A DNA stretch of 46,566 nucleotides. Origin: an uncultured archaeon. Lineage in GTDB: Archaea; Asgardarchaeota; Lokiarchaeia; Sigyniarchaeales; SOKP01. The notes below the pieces were generated by a model. The model saw only the letters and a list, made by a program, of their open reading frames with translations. It was not told the DNA's origin and searched no databases. Shown here in pieces: positions 8,766 through 36,726 of the stretch (its first letter is position 1; each line of letters begins with the position of its first letter). Position numbers and translations under genes: made by a program. Where the stretch lies: assembly GCA_964508365.1 (NCBI GenBank), contig CAZDTP010000029.1:1-46566 (forward strand), in the 5' to 3' direction.

Positions 8766-9218
8766 TTAGAATAAATCTAGATATGGCTCAACTTTTTCTT
8801 TGTTTCCGTTGTTGCTTATGAATTCTAAGATTTTTTTAGCCAGTTCTTTTTTTTTCTCGTAATAAATTTTCATAAATTCTTCTCTTGTTTTATTGGGGTA
8901 TCTTATTTGTAACGCAGGATCTCTCCTTGAACATCCCCCTTTTCTCATACAACAATATGAAATTGATCCAAAACACACGATATCAGAGTCCCAGCCATTT
9001 TCTCTTGAAAAATCTTCTTTAATTCTAATAAAATCCTCTGGACTTAGTTCTAAATCTTTTAAAGTTTCATCCCGCTTACATTTAAAGCCAAAAGTAAGAG
9101 AGTACCCTGGTTTACAGCAAAAAGTTAGACCGCGATAATCAGCATCCATGCATATATGGATTGGAGCATTTTTCCATCCTGGCAAATCTCTAAGCTTCTC
9201 TGGATCTAAATCAACCAT
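8766..9218 (-). CDS. Cys-rich protein resembling the methanogenesis marker 9 domain
   Basis: WKNAPIHIC...DYRGLTFCCKP...C.RD...CFGSISYCC...C.RRD contains 8 Cys, including two [FY]CC motifs as in the marker 9 domain. Confidence 0.75.
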   Translation of the reverse strand: MVDLDPEKLRDLPGWKNAPIHICMDADYRGLTFCCKPGYSLTFGFKCKRDETLKDLELSPEDFIRIKEDFSRENGWDSDIVCFGSISYCCMRKGGCSRRDPALQIRYPNKTREEFMKIYYEKKKELAKKILEFISNNGNKEKVEPYLDLF

Positions 9219-9370
9219 AGTCTAACCCTAAAACCTATTCTTAAACTGCTGAGTAAAATTCACTAAAAGATATTAAATTTATTGTTTCTAGGGTAAAATA
9301 AGACACCCTAAAGCAAATAAATTGAAATTATGAAATATAAGAGGGCCCGATGCGAGAATTGAACTCGCCT

Positions 9371-9400
9371 TACCCCAGCGATAAGAGCGTTCTTACGCTT
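9371..9400 (-). other. tRNA intron 3 (30 nt, variable region, position 45/46)
   Basis: BHB motif: helix CCCU/GGGG, bulges AGA and UAA, inner stems AGCG/CGCU and AAGA/UCUU. Confidence 0.85.
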
Positions 9401-9413
9401 CTAGGGATTCACA

Positions 9414-9443
9414 TAGGAGAATTTAGTAAGGAATACTAAGTTT
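9414..9443 (-). other. tRNA intron 2 (30 nt, anticodon loop, position 32/33)
   Basis: BHB motif: helix GGGG/CUCC, bulges ACA and UAU, inner stem AAcUUAGUA/UACUAAaUU. Confidence 0.88.
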
Positions 9444-9460
9444 GTCCCCAATACTAACCA

Positions 9461-9492
9461 TTATACAGCCTTAGAGCTATTTTCCGGGGCTT
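9461..9492 (-). other. tRNA intron 1 (32 nt, D-loop, position 15/16)
   Basis: BHB motif: helix GUAU/GUAU, bulges AGA and AAU, inner stem AGCC/GGCU. Confidence 0.85.
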
Positions 9493-9533
9493 CTATACGA
9501 ACCGGGCCATTGTAAAGTTATTAACAGTAACAA

Positions 9534-9550
9534 TTATAATTTAATCTTCT
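9534..9550 (-). promoter_or_regulatory. Candidate BRE/TATA promoter of tRNA-His
   Basis: The minus strand reads AGAAGAT-TAAATTATAA, ending 26 nt upstream of G-1. The context is AT-rich, so specificity is low. Confidence 0.4.
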
Positions 9551-9580: not shown

Positions 9581-10195
9581 TTATGTTTTAACCACTCTTA
9601 TTAAATAATTTAGGAATTGATCGATAGCAATTTCTAATTCTCCGGAATTATCAACGACAAAGTCCGCGTCGGGAAAAGTTTGGTTATCCTTTGCTCTTTG
9701 GATTCTATCTTGTAATTGTTTTCCGCTCTCTCGGGCTCTTTCTTTTATTCTCTGCAAAGTTATTTCGAAAGGTACTTTGATAAAAACAACTAAAATATTA
9801 CGGTAAATGCTACGAGCTTTTTTCACAATTGTTCGGCTAACATTTACGATTACGGGGTGTCCTTTTTTTAACCAATCGTCAATTTCTATTGGAACACCAT
9901 AATCTAAATCGTAAATGTGCCACTCAAGAGCAAATTTATTCTGAAGAGACATTCCTTTAAATATTTTTGGAGTTATTGCGATATTATCCTCTGTTTCTGA
10001 AGATGGTCTTGTAATATATCGCTGAGTGAGATGAATTTCTTTTAAATTAGATGGAAATCTTTTAACTACTTCAGAAATTAATGAATCTTTACCTGAACCT
10101 GAATTACCTACAACTAATACTAATATACCAGGAAAATTTTTTATCATTAGCTCTCCCATCTTCAAAATTTTACTACTTAAAAAAGATTTACTCAA
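9581..10195 (-). CDS. phnN: PhnN-like ribose 1,5-bisphosphate phosphokinase / guanylate kinase-like protein
   Basis: GNSGSGKDSL P-loop, RYITRP, FALEWHIYDLDYGVP, VIVNVSR and DNSGELE match PhnN. The real start may be a downstream ATG. Confidence 0.75.
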   Translation of the reverse strand: MSKSFLSSKILKMGELMIKNFPGILVLVVGNSGSGKDSLISEVVKRFPSNLKEIHLTQRYITRPSSETEDNIAITPKIFKGMSLQNKFALEWHIYDLDYGVPIEIDDWLKKGHPVIVNVSRTIVKKARSIYRNILVVFIKVPFEITLQRIKERARESGKQLQDRIQRAKDNQTFPDADFVVDNSGELEIAIDQFLNYLIRVVKT

Positions 10196-34691: not shown

Positions 34692-35432
34692 TTGACAAAG
34701 TTAATCTTTTTAGGATGTTTATCAAAAACTCGTTATCAAGAGACAAGTAAAAATGCAATTAAAATTATCAATTACTTAGATCCAAGCTACATCGTTTTAG
34801 AGGATATTCCGTGTTGCGGAGCTTTATCTTATCATATCGGCAGTGATATCGAGTTAAAAAATCATGTGGAATTTGTCAACAATTGGTTCGAATTAAACGA
34901 TGTGTCTGATATCGTGACTACATGCGCAGGATGTTATAACTATTTAACAAAATATTACACCCAATTCTTAGGAAAAGATTTTAAAATTAAAGTTAAGCAT
35001 TTCCTTCAGTTTCTAGCTGAACCAGAGAATATCTCAAAATTAGATTTAAAACATTCTGGTAAGAATTTAAAAGTTAGTTATCACGATGCTTGTCATTTAA
35101 GAAATGCTGTGGTTCCTATCATTGAGGAACCAAGAAAAATCCTAAATTCAATCGAAAATATTGAACTTAAGGAAATGGAAAATAATAAAACTAATAGTAT
35201 TTGTTGTGGTGCTGGAGGAGGTGTCTATTCAATATTTAAAGAAAATAGCGATTACAATTCAAAATTGATTTTTGATCAATTAAATCGTGGTAAAATCTTA
35301 TTAACAGCATGTCCTTTTTGTTTTACTTCACTAACTCGAATTAGAGAAGAGCATCAAATAAAGAAGCCAGTGATTAAATTTGAAGATTTTATTATAAACA
35401 TTATGGAAGGAGTTGATCCACTAAATGAATGA
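34692..35432 (+). CDS. CCG-domain Fe-S protein (LutA/HdrB/GlpC-like)
   Basis: FLGC, IPCCGA, VTTCAGC, YHDACHL, ICCGAGGG and LTACPFC. Confidence 0.85.
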   Translation: MTKLIFLGCLSKTRYQETSKNAIKIINYLDPSYIVLEDIPCCGALSYHIGSDIELKNHVEFVNNWFELNDVSDIVTTCAGCYNYLTKYYTQFLGKDFKIKVKHFLQFLAEPENISKLDLKHSGKNLKVSYHDACHLRNAVVPIIEEPRKILNSIENIELKEMENNKTNSICCGAGGGVYSIFKENSDYNSKLIFDQLNRGKILLTACPFCFTSLTRIREEHQIKKPVIKFEDFIINIMEGVDPLNE

Positions 35433-36726
35433 AAACGGAAAAGATTTATATGAGAATGTCAAGAAAAAAGTTGAAACTTCGCAGGAAGAAGGGACGTTAG
35501 AAAAACAATTTGGAAACTTCTGGAAAATGGCTTGTACGATAAAAACCAGACAACATGATTTAAGGTATTTATATGAAAATACAAGTCGAGAATTTGTCGA
35601 TAAAAATCGCGATAACCTTATTGAAATGCGAGAAGAGTTCGTTAACAATATGGAGTCGTATGTTGAAAAGTGCATCAATATAATGCGTAAGAAGAACTTC
35701 ACTGTTCATTATGCAAAAACAAATGAAGAAGCTCAAAAGATTTTTATGGAAGAATTAGGAGATACTAAGATCATTTATAAGTCTAAATCTAATGAAGCTA
35801 AAGATATTGGAATAATTGATGTTTTGAAGAAGAATAAAATTAAAATTAAAGAAACTGATTTAGGAGATGTTCTGGTTCAATTATTTGAATACGAATTACC
35901 AAGTTTTCAAGTTGGTCCAGGAGCTCATTTTACCGAAGAAGAAATAGCGAATAAAATTAAGGAGGTGTATGGAGTAGAACTTGAACCTAAAGCTCAAGCA
36001 ATTGTTGACTACTTTAGAAGTACTTATAGAAACGAGTTGCTCAACGATGTGAAAATATCTTTAACTTCTGCAAATGCCATATCTGCCGAAGATGGTACGA
36101 TAGTTTTGGGAGAAAATGAAGGAAACATCAGCCTTATTACAAGAGCGACGGAAAAGCACATCGTTGTATGTGGTATTACGAAAATTGTACCTAATATTTT
36201 GGATGCTGTTTTAATTACACAGTTACAATCTCGGATAAATAATGTTTCATATAATTACATAAGTCTCATTTCGGGACCCTCAAATACATCAGATATACAA
36301 GGTACAAGCGTTCAAGGCATGTACGGAGCAAAAGAAGTAGTAGTTATCCTTGTGGATGATTGGCGAACTAAAGCTGCTAACGAAAATCTCATTTATAAGG
36401 ACTTCTTGAAATGTATTGGTTGTAAAAGCTGTATTTTTCCTTGTACTGCATCACGAGCATTTGGAAATATTTACGCATCTAAGTATGGATTAGGTGCTAC
36501 TGCAATAATACGAGATTATATTCACAATGGAATCGAAGCTGCTGTAAATGACGGTCTTTTTCTCTGTACAGGATGCGAAAACTGTTATCACTGGTGTCCA
36601 GTTTCAATAAATTGTGGTGAAATTTTAAAAGATATGAAAAAAGAAGCTACAGAAAAGGGTTTAGCTCCCCCATACTTAGAGCAATATAAGGAGAAGATAT
36701 TTAGAGATAAAAATCCATTTTTATAA
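35425..36726 (+). CDS. LutB/LUD-domain Fe-S protein (lactate utilization protein B-like)
   Basis: KSKSN, ETDLGD, TSANAISAEDG, ENEGN, ISGPSNTSDIQ, GMYGAKEVVVILVD, CIGCKSCIFPC and CTGCENCYHWCP. It overlaps the upstream gene by 8 nt. Confidence 0.88.
   Translation: MNENGKDLYENVKKKVETSQEEGTLEKQFGNFWKMACTIKTRQHDLRYLYENTSREFVDKNRDNLIEMREEFVNNMESYVEKCINIMRKKNFTVHYAKTNEEAQKIFMEELGDTKIIYKSKSNEAKDIGIIDVLKKNKIKIKETDLGDVLVQLFEYELPSFQVGPGAHFTEEEIANKIKEVYGVELEPKAQAIVDYFRSTYRNELLNDVKISLTSANAISAEDGTIVLGENEGNISLITRATEKHIVVCGITKIVPNILDAVLITQLQSRINNVSYNYISLISGPSNTSDIQGTSVQGMYGAKEVVVILVDDWRTKAANENLIYKDFLKCIGCKSCIFPCTASRAFGNIYASKYGLGATAIIRDYIHNGIEAAVNDGLFLCTGCENCYHWCPVSINCGEILKDMKKEATEKGLAPPYLEQYKEKIFRDKNPFL

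Follow-up and report, generated by a model that had tools for sequence, protein, structure and literature searches.

A tRNA-His(GUG) gene with three bulge-helix-bulge introns in a Lokiarchaeial genome and its intron alleles across the genus

Results

A tRNA-His(GUG) gene in four colinear exons

The minus strand of the window (the whole 46,566-nt stretch of DNA analysed) carries, from position 9508 to position 9344, a 165-nt tRNA-His(GUG) gene in which four colinear exons of 16, 17, 13 and 27 nt are separated by three inserts of 32, 30 and 30 nt (Table 1). The inserts occupy positions 15/16 in the D loop, 32/33 in the anticodon loop just before U33, and 45/46 in the variable region. Joining of the exons yields a 73-nt sequence that ARAGORN folds into a regular cloverleaf and calls tRNA-His(gtg), with a 7-bp acceptor stem (GCCCGGT/ATCGGGC), a 4-bp D stem that includes two G-U pairs (GTAT/GTAT), a 5-bp anticodon stem (GGGGA/TCCCT), a variable region of 4 nt, and a T arm with a 5-bp stem (GCGAG-TTCAATT-CTCGC). 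Once intron 2 has been removed, the anticodon GUG sits in a 7-nt loop (C-T-GTG-A-A), and U8, A14, G18G19, U33, T54-T55-C56 and A58 can all be read off the spliced sequence. The nucleotide G-1 (9508) pairs with the discriminator C73 (9344), both being encoded in the genome, and a G-1 opposite C73 is the identity element of HisRS. The 3′ end of the gene does not encode CCA. Among the three introns, the sole ambiguous boundary is that of intron 3, which can be shifted by +1 with the product unchanged.

The original prediction had named this locus tRNA-His(GUG) and had proposed inserts of 32, 30 and 30 nt at 15/16, 32/33 and 45/46. The identity is borne out by the ARAGORN call on the spliced 73-mer and by the G-1:C73 pair, and the insert sizes and sites by intron-less orthologues with identical junctions, which are described below. 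A split or permuted tRNA gene is ruled out, given that the four exons follow one another in order on a single strand over 165 nt. Group I and group II introns are likewise ruled out, as inserts of 30-32 nt compare with a ribozyme core of hundreds of nucleotides; Rfam scans of the window and of a 351-nt slice gave no intron match at the locus.

The A/T-rich, TATA-like box TTAAATTATAAT that precedes the gene is a putative archaeal promoter. Comparable A/T boxes lie at roughly this distance in orthologues, although the 68% A+T of the background makes this a weak resemblance. The Cys-rich ORF on the 3′ side of the gene, for which no Pfam match was found, is syntenic with tRNA-His and lies directly downstream of it in most genomes of the genus.

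Table 1. Coordinates of the tRNA-His(GUG) locus and of its neighbours in the window
Feature	Position	Strand	Description
Upstream neighbour, 204-aa P-loop protein	9581-10195	-	weak guanylate-kinase match PF00625, E 1.4e-10
Putative promoter, A/T-rich TATA-like box TTAAATTATAAT	9533..9544	-	-36 to -25 from G-1
Exon 1	9493..9508	-	G-1, acceptor 5′ strand (1-7), nt 8-9, D-stem 5′ strand (10-13), A14, G15
Intron 1, 32 nt, 15/16 D loop	9461..9492	-	hBHBh′: H GTAT/GTAT 4 bp, h′ AGCC/GGCT 4 bp, h 2 bp
Exon 2	9444..9460	-	nt 16-32: remaining D loop, D-stem 3′ strand, nt 26, anticodon-stem 5′ strand, C32
Intron 2, 30 nt, 32/33	9414..9443	-	HBh′: H GGGG/CTCC 4 bp (one G-U), h′ 2 bp + 6-bp hairpin, h 1 bp
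Exon 3	9401..9413	-	U33, GUG (34-36), A37, A38, anticodon-stem 3′ strand (39-43), A44, G45
Intron 3, 30 nt, 45/46	9371..9400	-	HBh′: H CCCT/GGGG 4 bp, h′ AGCG/CGCT 4 bp, h 1 bp
Exon 4	9344..9370	-	nt 46 + 48, T arm, acceptor 3′ strand, discriminator C73
Downstream neighbour, conserved 150-aa Cys-rich ORF, N-terminus MVDLDPEKLRDLPGW, CxxC-like motifs	8766..9218	-

Bulge-helix-bulge motifs at the three inserts

Bulge-helix-bulge (BHB) motifs were defined as in Methods 4.8 of a 2026 preprint (Goswami et al., 2026; 10.64898/2026.10.13.758758) and in PMC4090602. Under this rule the central helix is formed by the four exon bases that precede the 5′ bulge and the four intron bases that precede the 3′ bulge, the two 3-nt bulges lie on opposite strands, and cleavage occurs after the second nucleotide of each bulge. 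Flanking helices, designated h on the exon side and h′ on the intron side, comprise at least 2 bp, and the accepted classes are hBHBh′, hBH and HBh′. Each of the three inserts has the central helix, the bulges and the flanking pairing of a BHB intron of the EndA type. The central helix H is complete (4/4) throughout, and the bulges are AG·A and AA·T for intron 1, AC·A and TA·T for intron 2, and AG·A and TA·A for intron 3, the dot marking the predicted cut. Intron 1 belongs to the hBHBh′ class, and introns 2 and 3 to the relaxed HBh′ class; in intron 2 the short h′ helix is followed, past one mismatch, by a further 6 bp. The three inserts had originally been described as full BHB motifs, a description that is accurate for the 4-bp central helices and 3-nt bulges but not for the exon-side helix of introns 2 and 3, which is a single pair.

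With the site fixed, shuffled sequences of introns 1, 2 and 3 formed a canonical motif in 1.7%, 3.3% and 0.1% of trials, respectively, and 0.8% of all placements within the precursor qualify as such a motif. With rates this low, a chance origin of the three motifs is unlikely. In the 165-nt precursor the three BHBs fit within one nested structure of -44.7 kcal/mol; they have no bases in common, so that all three can form simultaneously and no order of splicing is imposed. The unconstrained minimum free energy (MFE) fold, at -53.3 kcal/mol, is without the three BHBs and lies 8.6 kcal/mol below the triple-BHB structure. It pairs intron 1 with intron 3, a pairing that is not conserved in the congeneric genome G035, and we left this fold out as evidence in either direction.

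Intron-less and intron-bearing orthologues across the genus

The comparison covered 42 genomes of the genus (the window genome and 41 others), and 45 tRNA-His loci were parsed, of which 11 come from duplicate records of genomes already represented. The 16-mer of exon 1 was found in 34 of the 41 other genomes, and among public genomes almost every record that matches exon 4 exactly is titled as a Promethearchaeota or Promethearchaeia MAG, Loki_b31 among them. Across the 45 loci the gene carries 0, 1, 2, 3 or 4 introns, distributed over six or more positions (15/16, 22/23, 32/33, 37/38, 45/46 and 58-60), and yet every locus splices to 73 nt. Fifteen distinct mature sequences result, and 16 loci give one that is identical to the spliced product of the window. 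The labels 7/8, 11/12, 14/15 and 48/49 that were assigned in divergent orthologues are alignment artefacts of using the window mature sequence as the reference, and they were not counted.

Four congeneric loci, each from a different genome (L025, L026, L027 and L048), encode a 73-nt tRNA-His with no intron, and their D loops, anticodon loops and variable regions match the predicted junctions exactly. The BHB cut rule thus leads to precisely the junctions seen in these orthologues. One of the four, L048, scores 55.4 bits over positions 1-71 of RF00005, the whole model, and its sole difference from the spliced product of the window is a compensatory change from A-T to G-C in the T stem. Within the genus, double compensatory changes occur at five stem pairs of the mature tRNA, the T stem and the acceptor covary, and G-1:C73 is G:C in 15/15 distinct mature sequences.

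The introns themselves show a similar pattern, in that within intron families the helices covary and the loops drift. Among 17 distinct sequence variants of the 32/33 intron, the H helix is preserved through C/T changes. The 15 variants of the 45/46 intron include compensatory changes in h′ (AGCG/CGCT to AGTG/TACT) and a 10-bp helix with a swap of A-T for G-C. These comparative data, namely the exact junctions, the alleles with 0-4 introns and the covariation, provide the strongest evidence for the gene and its introns and tell against chance, a pseudogene and retained insertions; the locus is confirmed as a real tRNA-His(GUG) gene with three introns.

Two further loci deserve mention in their own right. 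In L010 (G036:C122, ~35407-35597), the tRNA-His gene contains four BHB introns, at 22/23, 32/33, 45/46 and 58/59, each with a 4/4 central helix, which exceeds the "up to three" introns given for archaea in the tRNAscan-SE 2.0 paper. The record of L036 (DATKTW010000051.1), titled 'Candidatus Nanopelagicaceae bacterium', carries a three-intron tRNA-His locus identical to that of G011 and is probably mis-binned or mislabelled.

Splicing enzymes and a proposed maturation pathway

The host is represented by a MAG of the Lokiarchaeia/Promethearchaeota, Promethearchaeota being the NCBI phylum within the Asgard kingdom Promethearchaeati. Its genome encodes RtcB and two EndA paralogues of 200 and 201 aa (contig 9: 62003-62605, plus strand; contig 1: 52034-52639, minus strand). 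The 200-aa protein aligns over its full length with the Aeropyrum pernix catalytic subunit (3P1Z_B, E 1.4e-33) and retains the Tyr, His and Lys positions, the Crenarchaea-specific loop, and the K44-equivalent Lys within an SKPR motif. The 201-aa protein is closest to the EndA of M. kandleri and M. jannaschii and has Ser at the aligned position of the catalytic His. This loss is the sole basis on which we infer that the longer paralogue acts as the beta (structural) subunit, and the quaternary structure would accordingly be of the (alpha-beta)2 kind. Enzymes of that type with an L1/CSL loop cleave non-canonical and relaxed BHB introns, and Asgard archaea carry them (PMC5829648). The host therefore encodes the EndA type suited to non-canonical and relaxed motifs, an alpha subunit with a CSL-type loop together with a second paralogue.

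It is highly probable, in our judgement, that the segment from 9508 to 9344 is a functional and apparently the only tRNA-His(GUG) gene of this genome, the precursor of which has three BHB introns that are spliced by EndA and RtcB. Transcription would produce a precursor of ~165 nt with introns at 15/16, 32/33 and 45/46. In this precursor, the four intron nucleotides before each 3′ bulge would stand in for the natural partner of one tRNA stem strand, with intron 1 holding the 5′ strand of the D stem, intron 2 the 5′ strand of the anticodon stem, and intron 3 its 3′ strand. Such surrogate pairing would create the 4-bp central helix between two 3-nt bulges, and because the introns hold these strands, the D and anticodon stems would form only after splicing. 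The heteromeric EndA would be expected to cleave both strands between the second and third bulge nucleotides, RtcB would join the exons, and CCA would be added to the 73-nt product after splicing.

A very improbable alternative is that at least one insert escapes removal by EndA at the predicted sites and is kept as an expansion segment, excised by a different nuclease, or cleaved a few nucleotides away from the predicted boundaries. Such a reading could appeal to the exon-side helices of introns 2 and 3, which are 1 bp only, to the energy gap between the triple-BHB and MFE folds, and to the 1-nt ambiguity at the boundary of intron 3. Were the inserts retained, however, there would be no D stem, the anticodon loop would be interrupted ahead of U33 and the variable region would gain 30 nt. 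In the intron-less orthologues, moreover, the junctions are those that the cut rule predicts, and HBh′ introns are known substrates of loop-bearing (alpha-beta)2 EndA (PMC5829648; PMC3241643).

Copy number and detection by annotation tools

The genome comprises 4.07 Mb in 149 contigs, with a GC content of 31.8%, completeness of 100% and contamination of 3.65%. That standard annotation would probably miss this gene had been anticipated, and this proved correct for ARAGORN, which reports no tRNA in the window, and for the Rfam tRNA model, which yields nothing at its gathering score and no tRNA match at E<=10 on the 351-nt slice. By iterating BHB searches, tRNAscan-SE 2.0 may do better (tRNAscan-SE 2.0 paper). 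Genome-wide, ARAGORN finds 29 tRNAs and RF00005 finds 27, while a finder based on the T arm and acceptor, which misses genes with introns in the T loop or acceptor, recovers ~28 credible ones. With only 27-29 tRNAs recovered from a genome that is 100% complete, at least a third of the set escapes detection.

Several hidden or misread genes came to light during these searches. A tRNA-like sequence with a UAU anticodon and two introns, in the D loop and at 37/38, is missed by both tools (C19:20322-20472), and T-loop introns of ~29 nt occur in a Lys-CUU-like gene (C60:82-190) and an Arg-GCG-like gene (C62:15201-15300). The sequence that ARAGORN calls 'tRNA-His(atg)' (C73:4895-4995) is without G-1, has A as its discriminator, and is probably tRNA-Pro(CGG) with a D-arm intron, which it fits better. 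The G-1/C73 geometry is also seen in a candidate on contig 1 (90490-90610), which was judged not to be a tRNA.

The original prediction had also called for a check for another tRNA-His in the genome. No second copy was found by ARAGORN, by RF00005, by a genome-wide search for an uninterrupted GUG anticodon arm with a T arm downstream, or by BLAST of 11 of the 15 distinct mature tRNA-His sequences of the genus, which matched at the window locus only. The window gene is very probably single-copy and essential, although a second, strongly divergent multi-intron tRNA-His may have escaped these searches, more than a third of the expected tRNA set being undetected.

These searches also bear on the idea that the locus is a decaying pseudogene that has accumulated insertions, histidine codons being decoded by another gene. 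The failure of standard finders at the locus would fit such decay, as would the occurrence of tRNA-His fragments in the genus, exemplified by a truncated 5′ copy that lies 2 kb from the full gene in G002. We nevertheless regard it as very improbable. No other tRNA-His was located in this 100%-complete genome, the 'His(atg)' call on contig 73 reading better as tRNA-Pro(CGG), and the four exons give exactly the mature sequence common to 16 loci. All three inserts have perfect central helices, and insertions accumulating during decay would not fall exactly at spliceable sites.

Intron turnover at the locus

A tree built from the 150-aa downstream gene, which served as a local phylogenetic marker, places the window as sister to G032 within a well-supported clade, the members of which mostly carry introns at 22/23, 32/33 and 45/46. 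The flanks of the window gene are 91-96% identical to those of G032 and G011, and introns 2 and 3 are identical or nearly so. Intron 1 at 15/16 is missing in these nearest relatives, in which an unrelated D-arm intron is found at 22/23. A homologue of the 15/16 intron is present in G035, where 25/32 nucleotides are identical and the flanks are ~72% identical. The combination of 15/16, 32/33 and 45/46 introns was independently assembled in G035. That the three introns owe their arrangement to misassembly, with co-occurring strains fused into a chimera at identical tRNA exons, is scarcely credible: the MAG does consist of 149 contigs with 3.65% contamination, congeneric alleles do have identical stretches of ~117 nt, and one pair of relatives (G015/G014) does differ sharply between its two flanks, but both flanks of the window gene match the same two relatives, the sole unique part is the D-arm segment, whose 5′ side is a 16-nt exon too short for a switch in a k-mer graph, and the same arrangement recurs in the separate assembly of G035.

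In that pair, L008 (G015:C44) and L018 (G014:C160), the flanks are 98.5% identical downstream and 84% identical upstream, and the intron sets do not overlap, L008 having 45/46 only and L018 having 22/23 and 37/38. The pattern suggests a recombination breakpoint at the tRNA-His gene. The intron content of tRNA-His changes faster than the adjoining DNA, and recombination at the tRNA is possibly a source of this change. A bolder proposal, which we advance tentatively and consider somewhat doubtful, is that tRNA-His in this Lokiarchaeial genus may be a site of ongoing and very fast intron turnover through the exchange of whole alleles or segments between lineages. If true, the locus would offer a natural series for how archaeal BHB introns are gained and lost, a question left open by the 2026 preprint.

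As a test of transposition, paralogous copies of the three introns were sought elsewhere in the window genome. None was found, the matches being of <=15 nt and at chance level; a 19-nt match on contig 132 sits in apparent coding sequence and was set aside. A truncated tRNA-His copy was observed in G002, 2 kb upstream of the full gene L006. This copy, L050 (G002:C142:44777-44860), consists of exon 1, a 34-nt intron at 15/16, and exon 2 as far as C32, followed by unrelated sequence. Possible readings of it are a fragment of a pseudogene, a remnant of allele exchange, and a 5′ half.

Discussion

Automated annotation is likely to report tRNA-His, along with many other tRNAs, as missing from this genome and its relatives, and such reports could be misread as genome incompleteness or as an odd decoding system. 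If splicing proceeds as proposed, an essential tRNA encoded in a single copy in a Loki-type Asgard archaeon relies on EndA/RtcB splicing of broad specificity, and the heavily interrupted tRNAs of other Asgard classes would extend to a Lokiarchaeial genus. The allele series with 0-4 introns constitutes ready comparative data on intron gain and loss.

The original prediction had regarded triple-intron tRNAs as known mainly from Thermoproteales, a view that is out of date now that Asgard cases have been published (PMC11291895; 10.64898/2026.10.13.758758). A 2024 paper reports that 92-95% of Asgard tRNA genes are interrupted (PMC11291895). According to the 2026 preprint (10.64898/2026.10.13.758758), genes in three focal families carry ~2.2 intervening sequences each, with as many as five in a single gene, 30% of intervening sequences are missed by tRNAscan-SE, mainly in the D arm, intron gains are repeated and often terminal, and EndA has two subunits. 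The gene described here resembles these published Asgard tRNAs in having several short introns with BHB motifs (30-32 nt here, with a published median of ~22-23 nt), mostly at non-canonical sites that include the D arm, in being missed by standard annotation, in the repeated and often terminal gains, and in the two-subunit EndA. It differs in its host, a genus of the Lokiarchaeia/Promethearchaeota. The focal families of the preprint are different, and Lokiarchaeia are not named in its main text. The present analysis differs further in that one gene, tRNA-His, is traced over 42 congeneric genomes.

Multi-intron tRNAs have been recognised in Thermoproteales (Pyrobaculum, Thermofilum and Caldivirga) since 2007-2008 (Sugahara 2007/2008 and Fujishima 2010, as cited in PMC4090602 and PMC8450103). 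As summarised in those citing articles, the Thermoproteales also have non-canonical introns of the BHB, HBh′ and hBH types, up to three per gene, which are cleaved by an (alpha-beta)2 EndA with the Crenarchaea-specific loop. In contrast, the host here belongs to another phylum, has low GC (32%) and is probably mesophilic, and its relative G036 has four introns in tRNA-His. Whereas the introns of Thermoproteales form families across tRNA genes, those of the window gene have no sequence-related copies elsewhere in the genome.

The catalytic EndA paralogue, with its loop, its equivalent of Lys44 and its triad, is similar to that of the (alpha-beta)2 enzyme of A. pernix (3P1Z/3AJV; PMC3241643, PMC5829648). 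The second paralogue departs from the A. pernix arrangement in being full length and in its affinity to the M. kandleri and M. jannaschii enzymes. BHB introns also occur in a protein-coding gene, for which cbf5 in Crenarchaeota is the published precedent; there an mRNA is interrupted, whereas the substrate here is the classical one, a tRNA. Thus, multi-intron tRNA genes of this kind are already described for Asgard archaea and Thermoproteales, and the main contribution of the present case is the genus-wide allele series.
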